DNA from: Escherichia coli
GTDB lineage: Bacteria > Pseudomonadota > Gammaproteobacteria > Enterobacterales > Enterobacteriaceae
Strand: one strand, 5' to 3'
DNA length: 5,196 bases
Assembly (NCBI RefSeq): GCF_003334335.1
Contig: NZ_QOWQ01000077.1
In this document: positions 300 to 5,196 of the stretch, in pieces
Position numbering within the stretch: position 1 is the stretch's first letter
Layout: each line of letters opens with the position of its first letter
Position numbers and translations under genes: made by a program
Notes under the pieces: generated by a model
What the model was told of the DNA's origin: nothing
The model's input: only the letters and a program-made list of their open reading frames with translations
Databases searched by the model: none

Positions 300-420
300 T
301 GCCAAAAAACTGCCGTGCCTTTGTCGGTAATTCGAACTTGCTGACAGGACAGGATGTGTAATTGTTATACCGCGCATACATGCACGCTATTACAATTACC
401 CTGGTCAGGGCTTTGCCCCG
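300..420. other. bom/oriT-like region (basis of mobility)
   Basis: Lies between rom and the mbeC-like gene as in ColE1/pBR322. The segment gggctttgccccgacaccc (401..419) resembles the recalled pBR322 bom sequence ggctgcgccccgacacccgcc. An imperfect inverted repeat lies adjacent (358..399). The nic position is not determined. Confidence 0.5.
358..399. repeat. Imperfect inverted repeat (12-bp arms, 11/12 match, 18-bp spacer) within the oriT-like region
   Basis: Left arm gtaattgttata (358..369); right arm tattacaattac (388..399), whose reverse complement is gtaattgtaata. Read directly from the sequence. Confidence 0.6.
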
Positions 421-426
421 ACACCC

Positions 427-774
427 ATGTCAGATACGGAGCCATGTTTTATGACAAAACGAAGTGGAAGTAATACGCGCAGGCGGGCTATCAGTCGCCC
501 TGTTCGTCTGACGGCAGAAGAAGACCAGGAAATCAGAAAAAGGGCTGCTGAATGCGGCAAGACCGTTTCCGGTTTTTTACGGGCGGCAGCTCTCGGTAAG
601 AAAGTTAACTCACTGACTGATGATCGGGTACTGAAAGAAGTTATGAGACTGGGGGCGTTACAGAAAAAACTCTTTATCGACGGCAAGCGTGTCGGGGACA
701 GGGAGTATGCGGAGGTGCTGATCGCTATTACGGAGTATCACCGTGCCCTGTTATCCAGGCTTATGGCAGATTAG
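427..774 (+). CDS. MbeC/MobC-like mobilization accessory protein (ribbon-helix-helix nicking accessory factor)
   Basis: ORF of 115 aa immediately downstream of the bom/oriT-like sequence. The N-terminal region has the pattern RPVRLTAEEDQEIRKRAAECGKTVSGFLRAAAL, typical of RHH mobilization accessory proteins. A more likely start is the in-frame ATG at 451 (107 aa), which has GGAG at 438..441, 9 nt upstream. The C-terminal half does not show the motif I expect for the relaxase-interacting domain, so the family assignment is tentative. Confidence 0.6.
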   Translation: MSDTEPCFMTKRSGSNTRRRAISRPVRLTAEEDQEIRKRAAECGKTVSGFLRAAALGKKVNSLTDDRVLKEVMRLGALQKKLFIDGKRVGDREYAEVLIAITEYHRALLSRLMAD

Positions 775-848
775 CTTCCCGGAGAGAAAACTGTCGAAAA
801 CTGACGGTATGAACACCGTAAGCTCCCAAAGTGATCACCATTCGCTTT

Positions 849-866
849 CATGCATAGCTATGCAGC
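849..866. promoter_or_regulatory. Putative ArgR (ARG box) site within the cer accessory region
   Basis: Palindrome tgcatagctatgca (851..864) fits the TGnAT...ATnCA ARG-box half-site symmetry and sits about 110 bp upstream of the crossover core, where ArgR binds in ColE1 cer. Confidence 0.45.
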
Positions 867-964
867 GAGCTGAAAACGATCCTGACGCATCCTTCCTGTT
901 TTTCCGGGGTAAAACATCTCTTTTTGCGGTGTCTGCGTCAGAATCGCGTTCAGCGCGTTTCAGT

Positions 965-994
965 GGTGCGTACAATTAAGGGATTATGGTAAAT
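965..994. other. XerC/XerD recombination core site of cer
   Basis: ggtgcgtacaa (965..975), ttaaggga (976..983), ttatggtaaat (984..994), read directly. Confidence 0.85.
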
Positions 995-997
995 CCC

Positions 998-1426
998 TTA
1001 CTGTCTGCCCTCGTATCCATCGAGATAAACCGCAGAAATGGTGTCTGCCATTAGTTTCATTTTTTTCGGCGAAGGCATATCGCTGTTTGTGTATTTTCTG
1101 CCAGCAAAGGTTGTTGTGCTCCGGAGTGAGTGAAAAAATTTTTCTGAGTGGAATTCTTTTACACGTTGCTGTGCCGTTTCTGCTGATACTCCGGCTGCTT
1201 TGTCTTTCATCCCCATATCCCGGAACTGCTGAAAGAACGGGAGCATCATACGTATGGTGTCTGCTTTCTGGGTGTAGAAGTTAGGATCAAATCCATCATC
1301 TGAAGCATAAACATAATGCCGGGTATGTCGTTCCAGGCTGGTCTTTGGTGTGCATCCTGTAAGAGCTATTGTTGCTGTTATCAGAGGTATCAGAAGCAGC
1401 CTGGCAGCGGCAGATCTCATAAACAT
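998..1426 (-). CDS. Hypothetical lipoprotein (142 aa), function unknown
   Basis: The N-terminus MFMRSAAARLLLIPLITATIALTGC has a positively charged n-region, a hydrophobic core and an LTGC lipobox, indicating a signal peptidase II substrate. The mature part is hydrophilic. I recognise no family. The stop codon lies 3 bp from the cer XerD arm. Confidence 0.6.
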   Translation of the reverse strand: MFMRSAAARLLLIPLITATIALTGCTPKTSLERHTRHYVYASDDGFDPNFYTQKADTIRMMLPFFQQFRDMGMKDKAAGVSAETAQQRVKEFHSEKFFHSLRSTTTFAGRKYTNSDMPSPKKMKLMADTISAVYLDGYEGRQ

Positions 1427-1541
1427 CTCCTTGCGTTTTTAATCTTGATACTCAGGGAGTTATATCTCCGAAGAGTATCTCTTATCATACGTCGGTTTAC
1501 TCCCAATGTGATTTGATGGTCAATGAGTCAGGAATAATCCC

Positions 1542-1820
1542 GTGAAAAAATGTGTGCCAGTCCTGCTTTTTAGTGTTCTTTCTGCTTCGGTTGCCAGTCA
1601 TGCGGACAGCAATGTTTTTCAACAAAAGGCCGAGAAGACAAAAAACGGCATTGTTGCGGATGTTAATGCCAGACAGAAAATGTTCAGTAACAGACTGAAG
1701 ATACAACTTCAGATCGATGAGTTGAGAGCAGAGCTGGCTGGCACCAGAGATGCCCAAAAAAGAGAGGATTTGCGTAAAAAACTGGAGTCTCTGGAGCGGC
1801 AAAAGAAATCCTTACGCTGA
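1542..1820 (+). CDS. Hypothetical secreted or periplasmic small protein (92 aa), charged and probably helical
   Basis: GTG start with AGGA about 7 nt upstream. Signal peptide MKKCVPVLLFSVLSASVASHA with an AxA-like cleavage site (SHA|D). The mature ~71 aa are K/E/R/Q-rich with heptad-like spacing (QLQIDELRAELAGTRDAQKREDLRKKLESLERQKK). Divergently arranged with the lipoprotein gene across a 115-bp intergenic region. Confidence 0.5.
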   Translation: MKKCVPVLLFSVLSASVASHADSNVFQQKAEKTKNGIVADVNARQKMFSNRLKIQLQIDELRAELAGTRDAQKREDLRKKLESLERQKKSLR

Positions 1821-2129
1821 TGGGGGCGTATTTTCCCCGGTTTCTTCCATAACCTTTTTACCGTTCAGATATTTACGGGCGAGGCGAATGCGTCTTGCCT
1901 GGTATACCGCCGAGTAAGCCTGGGTGGGATTCACACCATTACTGATTTCACTGACCACATGACGCTGATCTGCCAGTGTCAGCGTGTAAACCTGTTTCTG
2001 GATGAGGTCACGGGCTTTGTCATGCTCATATCCGGCAGCAACAAGGGTGTCGAGAAGTCGTTTGTCTGTTTTGTTCAGTTTATGGCGGGGTGATTTGCTC
2101 ACATCGTTCTCCGTTTTTTCATGATCCAA
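1812..2129 (-). CDS. Hypothetical basic protein (105 aa), putative DNA-binding (HTH-like)
   Basis: ORF convergent with the 1542..1820 gene (9-bp overlap) and divergent from the colicin promoter. The segment DKRLLDTLVAAGYEHDKARDLIQ looks like a helix-turn-helix. An alternative start is GTG at 2102, preceded by GGAG. No family recognised. Confidence 0.45.
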   Translation of the reverse strand: MDHEKTENDVSKSPRHKLNKTDKRLLDTLVAAGYEHDKARDLIQKQVYTLTLADQRHVVSEISNGVNPTQAYSAVYQARRIRLARKYLNGKKVMEETGENTPPSA

Positions 2130-2199
2130 CAGTTTTATATCTCATCCTGATTTGCTCCGGTGTTCTGTTTCGACGTTCTCAATGCCTGCCTCCCCATAG

Positions 2200-2216
2200 T
2201 GTGATCCTTATTGCAA
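2200..2216. promoter_or_regulatory. Possible CRP-binding half-site upstream of the colicin promoter
   Basis: tgtgatccttattgcaa has TGTGA, a 6-nt spacer, then TTGCA (3/5 match to TCACA), centred about 60 nt upstream of the predicted transcription start. Colicin E1 expression is known to be catabolite-sensitive. The match is weak. Confidence 0.25.
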
Positions 2217-2234
2217 AAATGAAAATCCATGCTC

Positions 2235-2263
2235 TTGACATGGACAATGCTGAATAGTAGGTT
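2235..2263 (+). promoter_or_regulatory. Colicin operon promoter
   Basis: Perfect -35 TTGACA at 2235..2240, a 17-bp spacer, and a -10-like TAGGTT at 2258..2263, immediately upstream of the LexA boxes. Confidence 0.55.
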
Positions 2264-2267
2264 TTTG

Positions 2268-2298
2268 CTGTACATAAAACCAGTGGTTATATGTACAG
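2268..2298. promoter_or_regulatory. Tandem overlapping LexA (SOS) boxes
   Basis: CTGTACATAAAACCAG (2268..2283) overlaps a second box read on the bottom strand, CTGTACATATAACCAC (2283..2298). This dual-box arrangement is characteristic of colicin promoters and nearly identical to the recalled colicin E1 operator. Confidence 0.85.
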
Positions 2299-2346
2299 TA
2301 TGTTGTTTTTAATTTATTGTTTTAATTATCAAAGAGGAATTTCTTT

Positions 2347-3819
2347 ATGGATAAAGTCACTGATAATTCTCCAGATGTGGAGAGCACAGAATCTACTGAG
2401 GGGTCATTCCCAACTGTTGGGGTTGATACTGGCGATACGATTACAGCGACGCTTGCAACTGGAACTGAAAATGTTGGTGGAGGCGGTGGAGCATTTGGTG
2501 GGGCCAGTGAAAGTTCTGCTGCGATACATGCAACCGCTAAATGGTCTACCGCGCAGTTGAAAAAACATCAGGCTGAACAGGCTGCCCGTGCTGCTGCGGC
2601 TGAGGCAGCATTGGCAAAAGCGAAATCTCAGCGTGATGCCCTGACTCAACGTCTCAAGGATATTGTTAATGACGCTTTACGTGCTAATGCCGCTCGTAGT
2701 CCATCAGTAACTGACCTTGCTCATGCCAATAATATGGCAATGCAGGCAGAGGCTGAGCGTTTGCGCCTTGCGAAGGCAGAGCAAAAAGCCCGTGAAGAAG
2801 CTGAAGCAGCAGAAAAAGCGCTCCGGGAAGCAGAACGCCAACGTGATGAGATTGCCCGCCAACAGGCTGAAACCGCGCATTTGTTAGCAATGGCGGAGGC
2901 AGCAGAGGCTGAGAAAAATCGACAGGATTCTCTTGATGAAGAGCATCGGGCTGTGGAAGTGGCAGAGAAGAAGCTGGCTGAGGCTAAAGCTGAACTGGCG
3001 AAGGCCGAAAGCGATGTACAGAGTAAGCAAGCGATTGTTTCCAGAGTTGCAGGGGAGCTTGAAAACGCTCAAAAAAGTGTTGATGTGAAGGTTACTGGAT
3101 TTCCTGGATGGCGTGATGTTCAGAAAAAACTGGAGAGACAATTGCAGGATAAGAAGAATGAATATTCGTCAGTGACGAATGCTCTTAATTCTGCGGTTAG
3201 CATTAGAGATGCTAAAAAAACAGATGTTCAGAATGCTGAGATAAAATTAAAAGAAGCTAAGGATGCTCTTGAGAAGAGTCAGGTAAAAGACTCTGTTGAT
3301 ACTATGGTTGGGTTTTATCAATATATAACCGAACAATATGGGGAAAAATATTCCAGAATAGCTCAGGATTTAGCTGAAAAGGCGAAGGGTAGTAAATTTA
3401 GTAGTGTTGATGAAGCTCTTGCTGCATTTGAAAAGTATAAAAATGTACTGGATAAGAAAATCAGTAAGGTTGATCGGGATGCTATTTTTAATGCGTTAGA
3501 GTCTGTTAATTATGATGAGTTATCTAAGAATTTAACGAAGATATCAAAGTCGCTTAAAATCACTAGTCGAGTATCTTTTCTATATGATGTTGGTTCTGAT
3601 TTTAAAAATGCAATAGAAACTGGTAACTGGCGACCTTTGTTTGTCACGCTGGAGAAAAGTGCGGTCGATGTAGGTGTGGCAAAAATTGTGGCATTAATGT
3701 TTAGTTTTATTGTTGGTGTGCCTCTTGGTTTCTGGGGGATTGCAATTGTCACAGGTATTGTTTCTTCTTACATAGGGGATGATGAGTTGAACAAACTTAA
3801 TGAGTTGTTAGGGATTTAA
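2347..3819 (+). CDS. cta: Pore-forming colicin, colicin E1 family (490 aa); best recalled match is colicin 10
   Basis: AGAGGA lies 9 nt upstream of the ATG. Residues ~55-130 ([29 protein letters not shown]...[16 protein letters not shown]...[31 protein letters not shown]) and the C-terminal channel domain (YGEKYS...[28 protein letters not shown]...LKIT..VSF.YDV.SD...TG.W.PLF.TLEK.A.D.GV...VAL.FS...[15 protein letters not shown]....LN..NE.LGI) closely parallel the recalled colicin E1 sequence. The N-terminal ~50 aa and the central region differ. The 490-aa length, the 96-aa immunity protein and the 43-aa lysis protein fit my recollection of colicin 10, but colicin 5 or a close relative cannot be excluded without a search. 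Confidence 0.85.
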
Positions 3820-4106
3820 TTTCTCTTTAGAGTGTAATATATGAAACTTGGCAATCCTACTGGGATTGCCATTAATAAATAAAACAATGCAGATAACTTG
3901 CATAAGTACCAGGGTTCTTTTTTTAACTTTGTATTTTCTTTGATATATCTAGATATGGTTAATTTAGAGTATGGATATAGCAATACATGTATTGATGATA
4001 TAAATATAAATAACAAAGGAGTGTTATCATTGTCGTTAAATATTAAAATAAGAATCCATGGTATAAGTGATTCAGGTAAATTATGTAGGTAGTATTTTAA
4101 ATGCAT
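3816..4106 (-). CDS. cti: Pore-forming colicin immunity protein, E1 type (96 aa, integral membrane)
   Basis: Convergent with the colicin gene; the two stop codons overlap at 3816..3819. The protein is very hydrophobic and AT-rich in codon usage, with about three predicted transmembrane segments. Motifs [15 protein letters not shown] and [14 protein letters not shown] resemble the recalled colicin E1 immunity protein (...CPYSKYAIEHIF..., ...LAIPFGLLGLVY...). Confidence 0.8.
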
Positions 4107-4135
4107 AAGTATTTTTACTTTTGTTGGAAAGAAAT

Positions 4136-4267
4136 ATGAAAATAATAATTTTTCTAATTACAATATTATTCTTGTCAGGATGTCAAGCAAACTATATTCG
4201 TGATGTGCAAGGAGGAACCGTTGCACCATCTTCGTCTTCTGAACTGACGGGGATCGCGGTTCAGTAG
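4136..4267 (+). CDS. ctl: Colicin lysis (release) lipoprotein, 43 aa
   Basis: Not in the supplied ORF track (too short). Hand translation gives [43 protein letters not shown], with GGAAAG 5-10 nt upstream of the ATG. Signal peptide plus LSGC lipobox and a short mature peptide are typical of colicin lysis proteins. It sits downstream of the immunity gene on the colicin strand, as kil does in ColE1. Confidence 0.8.
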
Positions 4268-4275
4268 AAAAGATC

Positions 4276-4302
4276 AAAGGATCTTCTTGAGATCCTTTTT
4301 TT
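4276..4302 (+). terminator. Rho-independent terminator of the colicin-lysis operon
   Basis: Hairpin aaaggatct / agatccttt with a 5-nt loop, followed by a T7 run (4295..4302), immediately after the lysis gene stop. Confidence 0.65.
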
Positions 4303-4316
4303 CTGCGCGTAATCTG
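4287..4316 (+). promoter_or_regulatory. RNA II (replication primer) promoter
   Basis: -35 TTGAGA (4287..4292), 17-bp spacer, -10 TAATCT (4310..4315). The segment tcttgagatcctttttttctgcgcgtaatctgctgc is essentially identical to the recalled pMB1/ColE1 sequence upstream of the RNA II start. Confidence 0.65.
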
Positions 4317-4321
4317 CTGCC

Positions 4322-4429
4322 TGTAAACGAAAAAACCGCCTGGGGAGGCGGTTTAGTCGAAGGTTAAGTCAGTTGGGGACTGCTTAACCGGGTAACTGGC
4401 TTTAGTGGAGCACAGATACCAAATGCTGT
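4322..4429 (-). ncRNA. RNA I antisense copy-number control RNA (about 108 nt)
   Basis: The 5-prime end ACAGCAUUUGGUAUCUGUGCUCC... is the complement of 4429 downward and is homologous to the pMB1 RNA I start ACAGUAUUUGGUAUCUGCGCUCUG. The 3-prime end is the hairpin plus U-run complementary to aaaaaaccgcctggggaggcggttt at 4327..4351. Confidence 0.75.
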
Positions 4430-4865
4430 CCTTCCAGTGTAGCCGCTATAAGGCTTCAACTTCAAGAGTTCTGCGTATCTAAATCCACTATCCAGTTACC
4501 AATGGCTGCTGCCAGTGGCGTTAAGTCGTGTCTTACCGGGTTGGACTCAAGACGATAGTTACCGGATAAGGCGCAGCGGTCGGGCTGAACGGGGGGTTCG
4601 TGCACACAGCCCAGCTTGGAGCGAACGACCTACACCGAACTGAGATACCAACAGCGTGAGCTATGAGAAAGCGCCACGCTTCCCGAAGGGAGAAAGGCGG
4701 ACAGGTATCCGGTAAGCGGCAGGGTCGGAACAGGAGAGCGCACGAGGGAGCTTCCGGGGGGAAACGCCTGGTATCTTTATAGTCCTGTCGGGTTTCGCCA
4801 CCTCTGGCTTGAGCGTCGATTTTTGTGATGCTCGTCAGGGGGGCGGAGCCTATGGAAAAACGCCT
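4323..4865 (+). ncRNA. RNA II pre-primer of the ColE1-type origin
   Basis: Starts at gtaaacgaaaaaacc..., homologous to the pMB1 RNA II start gcaaacaaaaaaacc.... The 5-prime ~110 nt are diverged from pMB1, then the sequence is near-identical to pBR322/pUC from about 4500 onward (ccagtggctgctgccagtggcg.taagtcgtgtcttaccgggttggactcaagacgatagttaccggataaggcgcagcggtcgggctgaacggggggttcgtgcacacagcccagcttggagcgaacgacctacaccgaactgagatacc...). The 3-prime end is approximate. Confidence 0.8.
4437..4465 (-). promoter_or_regulatory. RNA I promoter
   Basis: On the - strand: -35 TTGAAG (complement of 4460..4465), 17-bp spacer, -10 CTACAC (complement of 4437..4442), 7 nt before the RNA I start. Same architecture as the recalled pMB1 RNA I promoter. 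Confidence 0.6.
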
Positions 4866-4870
4866 GCGGC
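4850..4870 (+). other. Origin of replication (RNA II to DNA transition point, oriV)
   Basis: ggcggagcctatggaaaaacgcc is identical to the pBR322 sequence surrounding the mapped leading-strand start. The downstream 4900..5036 (tcacatgttctttcc...gcggaagagcgcc) is near-identical to the pBR322 region carrying the primosome assembly site. Confidence 0.7.
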
Positions 4871-5091
4871 GCGGGCTTCTTCCGGTGCTTTGCTTTTTGC
4901 TCACATGTTCTTTCCGGCTTTATCCCCTGATTCTGTGGATAACCGTATTACTGCTTTTGAGTGAGCTGACACCGCTCGCCGCAGTCGAACGTCCGAGCGT
5001 AGCGAGTCAGTGAGCGAGGAAGCGGAAGAGCGCCTTATGTGACATTTTCTCCTTACGCTCTGTTGTGCCGTTCGGCATCCTGTCCTGAGCG

Positions 5092-5196
5092 TTATCTCTC
5101 TGTGCTATTTTCTACTTCAAAGCGTGTCTGGATGCTGTTCTGGAGTTCTTCTGCGAGTTCGTGCAGCTTCTCACACATGGTAGCCTGTTCGTCAGC
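5092..5196 (-). CDS. rom: Rom/Rop, 3-prime portion (stop at 5092..5094); continues as feature 1..167 across the circular junction
   Basis: Same reading frame as feature 1..167; reverse-complement translation ends ...QTRFEVENSTER*. Positions 5120..5196 duplicate 1..77. Confidence 0.85.
   Translation of the reverse strand, partial: ADEQATMCEKLHELAEELQNSIQTRFEVENSTER
5120..5196. repeat. Terminal 77-bp exact duplicate of window positions 1..77 (circular-plasmid linearisation overlap, not a biological repeat)
   Basis: aagcgtgtctggatgctgttctggagttcttctgcgagttcgtgcagcttctcacacatggtagcctgttcgtcagc occurs at 1..77 and 5120..5196. Implied unit length is 5,119 bp. Confidence 0.9.

Follow-up and report, generated by a model that had tools for sequence, protein, structure and literature searches.

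A predicted cer-type multimer-resolution site of mosaic composition in a small colicin plasmid of Escherichia coli

Location of the site and neighboring genes

The stretch of DNA analyzed here (the window) is 5196 bases in length and represents a circular plasmid of 5119 bp with a 77-bp overlap, i.e., positions 1–77 are repeated at 5120–5196. Over the region tested, the plasmid is 100% identical to pEcoUTI1a (NZ_CP049851.1) and to CP125069.1. A predicted cer-type resolution site is located between nikA and exc2 (Table 1). The left-hand gene, nikA, reads into the site and has its stop codon about 10 bp before the accessory arm. The right-hand gene, exc2, converges on the site from the other side.

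Table 1. Positions of the features of the plasmid in the 5196-base window
Feature	Position	Strand	Basis
rom	wraps the origin	-	annotation of NZ_CP049851.1
oriT-like 20-nt inverted repeat	358-399
nikA ('mobA'), ribbon-helix-helix relaxase accessory protein	451-774	+	NCBIfam, PGAP
78-aa ORF, judged spurious	743-979	+	frame broken in relatives
predicted cer-type resolution site	780-994	+
accessory arm, NTP16/pMUT1 class, presumed PepA/ArgR wrapping region	780-964	+	alignments
ArgR-box homologue; its core is the palindrome TGCATAGCTATGCA at 851-864	849-866	.	aligns with ColE1 box
Pcer-homologous position: ATGCAT (850-855), 15-bp spacer, TGAAAA (871-876)	850-876	+	PWM, -1.5 bits
long imperfect hairpin, arms 861-889 and 934-962, apical hairpin 897-916	861-962	+	RNA fold
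conserved block CGCGTTCAGCGCG, then TTT, immediately left of the XerC arm	945-960	+	alignment
XerC-binding arm GGTGCGTACAA	965-975	+	identical to ColE1, ColK
central (crossover) region TTAAGGGA, 8 bp	976-983	+	identical to ColE1, ColK
XerD-binding arm TTATGGTAAAT	984-994	+	identical in 13 sites (mismatch-tolerant search)
exc2 (Exc2 family lipoprotein)	998-1426	-	NCBIfam, PGAP
hypothetical gene	1542-1820	+
hypothetical gene	1812-2129	-
pore-forming colicin, 490 aa	2347-3819	+	annotation of NZ_CP049851.1
colicin K immunity protein	3816-4106	-	annotation of NZ_CP049851.1
lysis gene	4136-4267	+	annotation of NZ_CP049851.1
RNAI	4327-4427	-	Rfam, 77.4 bits

The nikA product matches the NCBIfam family NF041264 (MobA) with 113 bits against a cut-off of 80. 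It is protein WP_000166966.1 in the PGAP annotation of the identical record NZ_CP049851.1, and the same accession is found at three related loci (L010, L011 and L014). None of the eight annotated genes of the plasmid encodes a relaxase. The NikA group, described by Moran and Hall (2017) as cited in PMC9282650, consists of small ColE1-like plasmids such as pCERC7, NTP16 and pU302S. The traits given for the group are the same NikA, a conserved oriT with 20-bp inverted repeats, the lack of a relaxase gene and a variable segment adjoining the resolution site. The present plasmid has this NikA and a 20-nt inverted repeat, carries no relaxase gene, and its homology to the group stops at position 994.

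The exc2 product matches NCBIfam NF033828 (Exc2 family lipoprotein) with 179.5 bits against a cut-off of 35, and a lipobox, LTGC, is present at residues 22–25 of the 142-aa open reading frame. PGAP places the gene at 998–1420, slightly shorter than the open reading frame. Its DNA is 98.6% identical to that of pColK-K235. The preliminary description stated that the gene for this 142-aa lipoprotein ends 3 bp from the XerD-binding arm, and this is correct, the stop codon being at 998–1000. The distance from the exc2 stop codon to the XerD arm is also 3 bp in ColK and in site L006; it is 4 bp in ColE1 and in sites L007 and L009, and 8 bp in L008.

It had further been proposed that dimer resolution or Rcd transcription could harm the 3' end of exc2. 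With distances of 3–8 bp in relatives, the location of exc2 beside the core is an ordinary arrangement and presents no special conflict. Xer exchange is conservative and is confined to the central region of the core. Since the exchange is confined to positions 976–983 and both partners in a dimer are identical, resolution cannot change exc2, whose stop codon is outside the core; damage to the 3' end by resolution was rejected as a possibility. Judged by homology to ColE1, an RNA of the Rcd type would be on the + strand and upstream of the core.

A 9-bp perfect inverted repeat (positions 977–985 and 992–1000) extends from the central region across the XerD arm to the exc2 stop codon. ColK has the identical repeat; the ColE1 copy is imperfect. 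Folded as exc2 mRNA, the repeat has a delta G of -19.8 kcal/mol (z = -5.3) and is not followed by a U tract.

The recombination core

The core, GGTGCGTACAA-TTAAGGGA-TTATGGTAAAT, is 30 bp in length and is found at positions 965–994 on the + strand with 0 mismatches; none of 200 shuffled sequences (0/200) has a match. The same sequence is present in ColE1 (L002, NC_001371, positions 3909–3938) and in pColK-K235, with identity at 30 of 30 positions. The earlier reading of these 30 bp as essentially an exact ColE1 cer core therefore stands. Cores of the cer type consist of an 11-bp XerC arm, a central region of 6–8 bp and an 11-bp XerD arm (PMC5357621, PMC2699498), and a central region of 8 bp is that of the cer type (PMC5357621). 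The XerD arm is identical in 13 sites that were obtained with a mismatch-tolerant search for the core; in the sites obtained otherwise the arm was a part of the search pattern.

The accessory arm

The accessory arm was aligned among 13 sites and among 57 sites. Over its 185 bp it displays 89% identity to NTP16, 57% to ColE1 and to ColK, and 56% to CloDF13. Positions 700–994 of the window are 100% identical to plasmids of the pMUT1 type, which E. coli Nissle 1917 and Citrobacter rodentium, among others, carry. This identity stops exactly at 994, the final base of the XerD arm. A 'Cer' element has been annotated on pMUT1 (PMC10859263). The part of the site that resembles ColE1 consists of the core and about 22 bp to the left of it, where 17 of 22 bp match ColE1. 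The designation of the site as a canonical cer is thus appropriate for the core and these approximately 22 bp, but not for the accessory arm, which is closer to NTP16 (89% identity) than to ColE1 (57%). Alignment with ColE1 and relatives, which had been proposed as a check, shows that the accessory region is present and is homologous to that of NTP16 over its whole length, with recognizable homology also to ColE1, ColK and CloDF13.

The accessory arm precedes the core on the + strand. The presence of RNAI on the - strand places RNAII on the + strand, so that RNAII transcription meets the accessory side of the site first. In ColE1-like plasmids this orientation is reported to be invariant, and RNAII transcription and replication enter the site from the accessory side (PMC2831885). 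Sites of the cer type carry about 180 bp of accessory DNA immediately ahead of the XerC arm, an ARG box some 100 bp before the core, and PepA contacts flanking this box. PepA sites are not recognizable by sequence and are described as 'less clearly defined' (PMC2831885).

A mosaic junction at the core

Comparison by blastn reveals two different parents on the two sides of the core. NTP16 matches the window at 4391–5119 and 1–994 with 94% identity. pColK-K235 matches at 943–2356 with 98–99.8% identity, and has a second match at 2922–5063 with 93% identity. The homology to ColK and to ColE1 starts at position 943. The two parents overlap only in 943–994, and this segment, located at the core, represents the junction. 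The end points of megablast matches cluster at 994, 970, 943 and 991, as seen in 60 evenly spaced rows of 901 plasmid records.

Other plasmids show different joinings at the same place. The pSS046_spB group (5153 bp) combines this left half with the exc2 protein of ColE1 itself and with an E1-like colicin. A further natural site (L015) has an XerC arm of the NTP16 type fused to a central region of the cer type.

As judged by these alignments, the site is a natural mix in which an NTP16/pMUT1-type accessory arm is followed by ColK-like DNA, comprising the core and all that lies to the right of it (exc2 and the colicin module). The pattern is as expected if the modules were joined by recombination at or next to the core and if exchange has occurred there repeatedly. 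The present junction could have arisen by either XerCD recombination or homologous recombination in the shared 50 bp, between which the sequence does not distinguish. The mosaic fits the published NikA plasmid group, with its varied segments beside the resolution site. The seam between a NikA-type backbone and a ColK-type exc2-colicin segment illustrates Xer sites as points of exchange between small plasmids.

Related cer-like sites

A scan with an ArgR-box-to-XerD pattern, using one genome per species, gave 56 loci. These loci together with the plasmid loci, ColE1 and ColK represent 57 distinct sites, which fall into the classes of Table 2. Three properties are given for each class: a -10 promoter hexamer, a 15-nt motif (GGGTGGTTTGTTGCC) and a hairpin. 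Among the 57 distinct sites, good Pcer-like hexamers and the Rcd motif are found together only in the ColE1/ColK/CloDF13 class.

Table 2. Promoter hexamer, motif GGGTGGTTTGTTGCC and hairpin in classes of cer-like sites
Class	-10 hexamer	Motif	Hairpin
ColE1/ColK/CloDF13	good (TAAAAT or TACAAT)	13-15/15	mostly strong
NTP16 class proper, 16 sites including the window	<= -0.1	<= 9/15	mostly strong, z to -5.7
four related TAAAAA sites (L040, L059, L060, L068)	intermediate, 3.4	8-11/15	mixed, z +0.2 to -3.1
Enterobacter/Pantoea/Serratia	poor to intermediate	none	not significant

A hairpin in the accessory arm

Sites of the Rcd class encode a stem-loop RNA in the segment from the ARG box to the XerC arm, and the window has a long imperfect hairpin there. 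The two arms are 29 nt each and are 79% complementary. The + strand RNA folds with a delta G of -42.2 kcal/mol (z = -3.4; the ColE1 equivalent has z = -4.8), and the - strand folds about equally (z = -3.5). Comparable long hairpins occupy the same place in the ColE1, CloDF13 and NTP16 classes with stem sequences that are unrelated.

Modeling of an alignment of mixed classes with RNAalifold recovered only a small 3' hairpin, since the long stems are out of register from one class to another. Sites were folded one by one, and base pairs were counted within one class. Covariation in the NTP16 class is weak, with 83.7% of the cells paired. Pairs changed on both sides number 6, compared with 3.3 +/- 1.3 in shuffles (21 of 500 shuffles reach 6), and the covariation score is 0.118, compared with 0.099 in shuffles (8 of 500). 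These values are within the range of related sequences that have no structure.

One explanation for the hairpin region is that it makes a different RNA, or that it acts on a transcript reading through from nikA. The hairpin and the CGCG...CGCG-TTT block at 945–960 would then attenuate or terminate the nikA transcript before the core, a role that may coexist with resolution. We consider this unlikely. It is consistent with the strong + strand hairpin (z = -3.4), with the fact that no terminator is predicted from the nikA stop codon (774) to the hairpin (860), with a small GC hairpin followed by TTT or TTTT before the XerC arm in both the ColE1 and NTP16 classes, and with a covariation signal that is weak but positive (6 pairs where 3.3 are expected). 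However, the run of T residues is limited to 3 nt, the comparable folding of the - strand (z = -3.5) suggests a symmetry that could act at the DNA level, and the covariation is explicable without any structure. In addition, hairpins are not significant in a third class of such sites (Enterobacter/Pantoea/Serratia, Table 2), so that a cer-like site can do without one. The hairpin is perhaps a property of an RNA, perhaps by way of nikA read-through, or else a DNA-level feature of the accessory arm.

Promoter and Rcd sequences

The preliminary description regarded Pcer, the promoter of the Rcd checkpoint RNA, as probably embedded in the site. Rcd is approximately 70 nt in length; a 15-nt sequence within it is conserved, with 86.7% identity of CloDF13 to ColE1 (PMC5935869). 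Pcer has a 15-bp spacer (PMC5935869), and rcd transcription runs in the same direction as that of RNAII (PMC2831885). A promoter scan with spacers of 16–18 bp, which is blind to 15-bp spacers, gave none in the window or in ColE1 cer; it was replaced by a position weight matrix (PWM) scan with spacers of 15–19 bp.

By the PWM scan, the best + strand promoter in ColE1 cer is TTGCAT-15-TAAAAT (8.8 bits), which overlaps the ArgR box. From the published spacer, the published direction and the PWM scan, we infer that this is the ColE1 Pcer. The position agrees with an overlap of the Pcer -35 hexamer and the ArgR site, which we take to be a property of ColE1. The promoter is kept in ColK (7.7 bits) and in CloDF13 (6.1 bits). 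Only two stretches of ColE1 have 13 of 15 positions identical to CloDF13, one around the -10 hexamer and the other at the hairpin apex, GGGTGGTTTGTTGCC. The latter is presumably the conserved Rcd motif, as deduced from the published percentage identity. Its match is 15/15 in ColK and 13/15 (86.7%) in CloDF13, and 13–15/15 in the ColE1 class.

The window differs from ColE1 in both of these elements, and the proposal of an embedded Pcer was not upheld. The homologous hexamers, ATGCAT-15-TGAAAA, score -1.5 bits versus 8.8 bits in ColE1, the -10 hexamer TGAAAA having neither A at position 2 nor T at position 6. The PWM scan with spacers of 15–19 bp reveals no alternative + strand promoter upstream of the hairpin in the window. 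The Rcd motif GGGTGGTTTGTTGCC is matched at 4/15 positions at the aligned location and at no more than 7/15 anywhere in the window. An Rfam search of the whole window at E <= 1 finds only RNAI and has no match in 780–1000, a result that cannot settle the Rcd question. As far as the sequence can indicate, an Rcd checkpoint is not supported for this site, and the ColE1 Rcd promoter does not appear to be present in the NTP16/pMUT1 class of site.

That this is a canonical ColE1 cer with Pcer, expressing the Rcd checkpoint RNA from plasmid dimers, is on these grounds improbable. It would be in keeping with the long stable hairpin that takes the place of the ColE1 Rcd stem loop, with an orientation to RNAII that is the one tied to Rcd control (PMC2831885), and with a few stem variants in relatives that can pair only as G.U on the + strand (L010, L012, L013 and L015). 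These points are to be weighed against the low score of the homologous hexamers, also relative to ColK and CloDF13, the lack of another + strand promoter upstream of the hairpin, the poor match to the motif and the Rfam result for 780–1000.

A tentative proposal, possible though not one we would favor outright, is that the NTP16/pMUT1 class either lost or never had Pcer and the Rcd loop motif while the hairpin was kept. The widespread small plasmids of this class would then be maintained without a cell-division checkpoint of the Rcd type, or their hairpin would represent a different RNA, e.g., one formed by nikA read-through. If true, the Rcd checkpoint would belong to one sub-lineage of ColE1-like plasmids and would not be general among cer-like sites. 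Labeling every cer-like core 'cer with Rcd' is unsafe, given the distribution of the hexamers and the motif among the 57 sites (Table 2).

The ArgR-box homologue and function of the site

The sequence TGCATAGCTATGCA is a perfect 14-bp palindrome; shuffled windows have 0.33 such palindromes on average. In alignments it coincides with the ColE1 ArgR box TGCATAGGTATTCA, and its center is 107.5 bp from the first base of the XerC arm, compared with 106.5 bp in ColE1. The palindromic ARG-box-like element that had been noticed about 110 bp upstream of the core is thus confirmed. Against the classical ARG consensus the box scores 10/16 (the ColE1 box scores 12/16), a measure that does not separate it from background, as 175 other positions in the window score at least 10/16. 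Because the consensus score is at background level, assignment as an ArgR box rests on positional homology and on conservation. Among 55 distinct sites from many Enterobacterales, the box is 141–144 nt away from the XerD arm in 54 and 131 nt away in one; the pattern of the genome scan included TGCATAG..ATGCA, so that presence of the motif in those matches is by construction. On this basis the palindrome is an ArgR-box homologue and a predicted ArgR site at the correct position.

A weak ARG box lowers resolution in the related site mwr (PMC2699498), and it might be argued that the present site is likewise inefficient, a poorly functional site or a relic whose intact core was acquired by recent recombination. 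The mwr precedent and the background-level consensus match (10/16) would agree with such a view, but we regard it as very improbable. The TGCATAG..ATGCA box is present at the conserved distance from XerD noted above, CloDF13 included, and many small plasmids (pMUT1 and relatives) carry the exact 215-bp sequence unchanged, which argues for purifying selection.

A real small protein encoded by the 78-aa open reading frame that overlaps the site can be dismissed almost with certainty: the frame is open in this plasmid and short hypothetical proteins are annotated hereabouts in some records, but it has a GTG start inside nikA, has no NCBIfam family match, and is broken by stop codons or a frameshift in 7 of 8 relatives (NTP16, L010, L011, L012, L006, L007 and L009). 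It had been called most likely spurious at the outset, and the broken frame was the basis for rejecting it as a gene.

From the observed sequence identity, spacing and orientation, the segment 780–994 is in all likelihood a cer-type plasmid multimer-resolution site at which dimers would be resolved in an XerCD/ArgR/PepA-dependent manner. We infer the binding of these proteins, and the dependence of resolution on them, by homology. Points against this reading are the background-level match to the ARG consensus, PepA sites that have no recognizable sequence, and transcription of both flanking genes into the site, with no intrinsic terminator predicted within 780–1000 on either strand. The host recombinases XerC and XerD would bind the 30-bp core, and the arm of approximately 185 bp with its ArgR-box homologue would be wrapped by ArgR and PepA. 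Such wrapping would restrict recombination to two directly repeated sites on a dimer and convert it to monomers, and monomerization would keep a high-copy, partition-less colicin plasmid of the ColE1 type stable. In this way the site would explain how a 5.1-kb colicin plasmid stays monomeric. Both the exact sequence of the site and the plasmid group are already present in the literature and in databases. This is an ordinary, already described type of cer site, and beyond correct annotation the site itself matters little.

Comparison with known systems

The closest likeness is to NTP16 and pMUT1. Positions 700–994 are those of pMUT1-type plasmids at 100%, and the arm is 89% identical to that of NTP16. 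Resemblance to the NikA group includes the same left neighbor, nikA (WP_000166966.1), the same upstream oriT-like 20-nt inverted repeat, and DNA to the right of the site that represents a variable module. NTP16 differs in its core, in which the XerC arm is GGTGCGCGTAA and the central region, TGAGACG, is shorter. pMUT1 diverges right after the XerD arm (994), whereas the present plasmid runs into exc2 and the colicin module.

The site shares with ColE1 cer the 30-bp core, the position of the ArgR box within 1 bp, the end of exc2 beside the XerD arm and the orientation to the origin. It differs from ColE1 cer in the accessory arm (57% identity), in the ArgR box (TGCAT..ATGCA here, TGCAT..ATTCA in ColE1) and in that the Pcer hexamers and the 15-nt Rcd motif of ColE1 are absent here. 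pColK-K235 has the same core, the same 3-bp gap to the exc2 stop codon and the same 9-bp inverted repeat across that codon; to the right of 943 the identity is 98.6–99.8%. Its accessory arm is unlike that of the present site, being of the ColE1 class with TAAAAT and a 15/15 match to the motif, and pColK-K235 has a full mbe mobilization region and an IS2 element, both of which are absent here.

CloDF13 has an ArgR box of the same type (TGCATAGGCATGCA) and with the same spacing; as in the present site, a long hairpin lies between this box and the XerC arm. Its core is different (GGTACCGATAA-GGGATG), it keeps TAAAAT and a 13/15 match to the motif, and its stem sequence is unrelated to that of the site described here.

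Conserved elements around the recombination core

The block CGCG(T/C)T(C/G)A(G/A)(C/G)GCG is 8–20 bp to the left of the XerC arm (positions 945–957 in the window). Site alignments show that its sequence is kept across accessory classes that otherwise differ, and it may serve as a binding element for a protein or form the RNA's 3' hairpin. The top plus-strand promoter-like match in the site, TTCAGC-16-TACAAT (positions 949–976, 6.5 bits), has its -10 element within the XerC arm. ColE1 and ColK display an equivalent match, CTGAAC-16-TACAAT, at 7.2 bits. Transcription from this match would run through the core and antisense into the lipoprotein gene exc2, and XerC binding would cover the match. 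Likewise in pMB1, the -35 element of the EcoRI promoter is located in the cer central region (PMC7315355).

Secondary structure modeling of the 3' end of the exc2 mRNA (minus-strand RNA, positions 968–1006) predicts a 13-bp hairpin (-19.8 kcal/mol, z = -5.3). It is composed of the last two codons and the stop codon of exc2, together with the XerD arm and the central region. There is no U tract at this hairpin. The hairpin is identical in ColK, but the ColE1 version is bulged.

Comparison with other cer-like sites

A natural hybrid core, GGTGCGCGTAA-TTAAGGGA-TTATGGTAAAT, is found at positions 380–523 of locus L015; an NTP16-type XerC arm is joined to a cer-type central region, with the junction at the boundary between the two. 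The assembly containing this contig is labelled Pseudovibrio stylochi.

The genome scan also revealed sites identical or nearly identical to that of the window on L046, L049, L050 and other short contigs. These contigs are often of low coverage, and the assemblies they belong to are labelled Hymenobacter, Streptomyces, Bacillus, Streptococcus, Cutibacterium and others. Such sites most likely represent contaminating enterobacterial small plasmids and not true hosts.

A third class of cer-like sites, from Enterobacter, Pantoea, Serratia, Kosakonia and others, is present within the alignment of loci L021–L067. Its members keep the spacing and carry both the ArgR box and a conserved CGCGCTGAGGGCG block, and ...CAGAAATCATCAGGG... 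replaces the -10 hexamer. In this alignment the class is without the Rcd motif, and folding of its sites shows no significant hairpin (z ~0).

Plasmid structure and gene content

Comparison of the ends shows a 77-bp overlap, positions 1–77 being the same as positions 5120–5196; the window covers an entire 5119-bp circular plasmid. Plasmids pEcoUTI1a (NZ_CP049851.1) and CP125069.1 have 100% identity to the window over the region tested. The source of pEcoUTI1a is a bladder biopsy from Mexico.

Features outside the resolution site
Feature	Positions	Strand	Remarks
20-nt inverted repeat, GTAATTGTTATACCGCGCAT / ATGCACGCTATTACAATTAC	358–399		upstream of nikA; 85% complementary, 2 nt between arms
Hypothetical gene	1542–1820	+	signal-peptide-like N-terminus; overlaps 1812–2129 gene
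Hypothetical gene	1812–2129	-	overlaps 1542–1820 gene
Colicin gene	2347–3819	+	490-aa product
Immunity gene	3816–4106	-	WP_011264161.1

No relaxase gene is present on the plasmid. The inverted repeat fits a pEC34A-type oriT, with 20-bp repeats, as described for NikA plasmids (PMC9282650). Neither hypothetical gene has a match to an NCBIfam family.

Compared with colicin K, the protein is a chimera: residues 163–490 of the colicin have 80% identity to colicin K, rising to near identity over the final ~100, and the first ~160 residues at the N-terminus are unrelated to it. Its size and pattern are reminiscent of colicin 5. The immunity protein and Cki of pColK-K235 share one accession, WP_011264161.1. 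When window positions 1152–2356 are compared with positions 1–868 and 2199–2536 of pColK-K235 (L004), an IS2 at positions 959–2187 is seen to split, in pColK-K235, a region that is continuous in the window, and the window, with both of its overlapping hypothetical genes, therefore represents the uninterrupted form.
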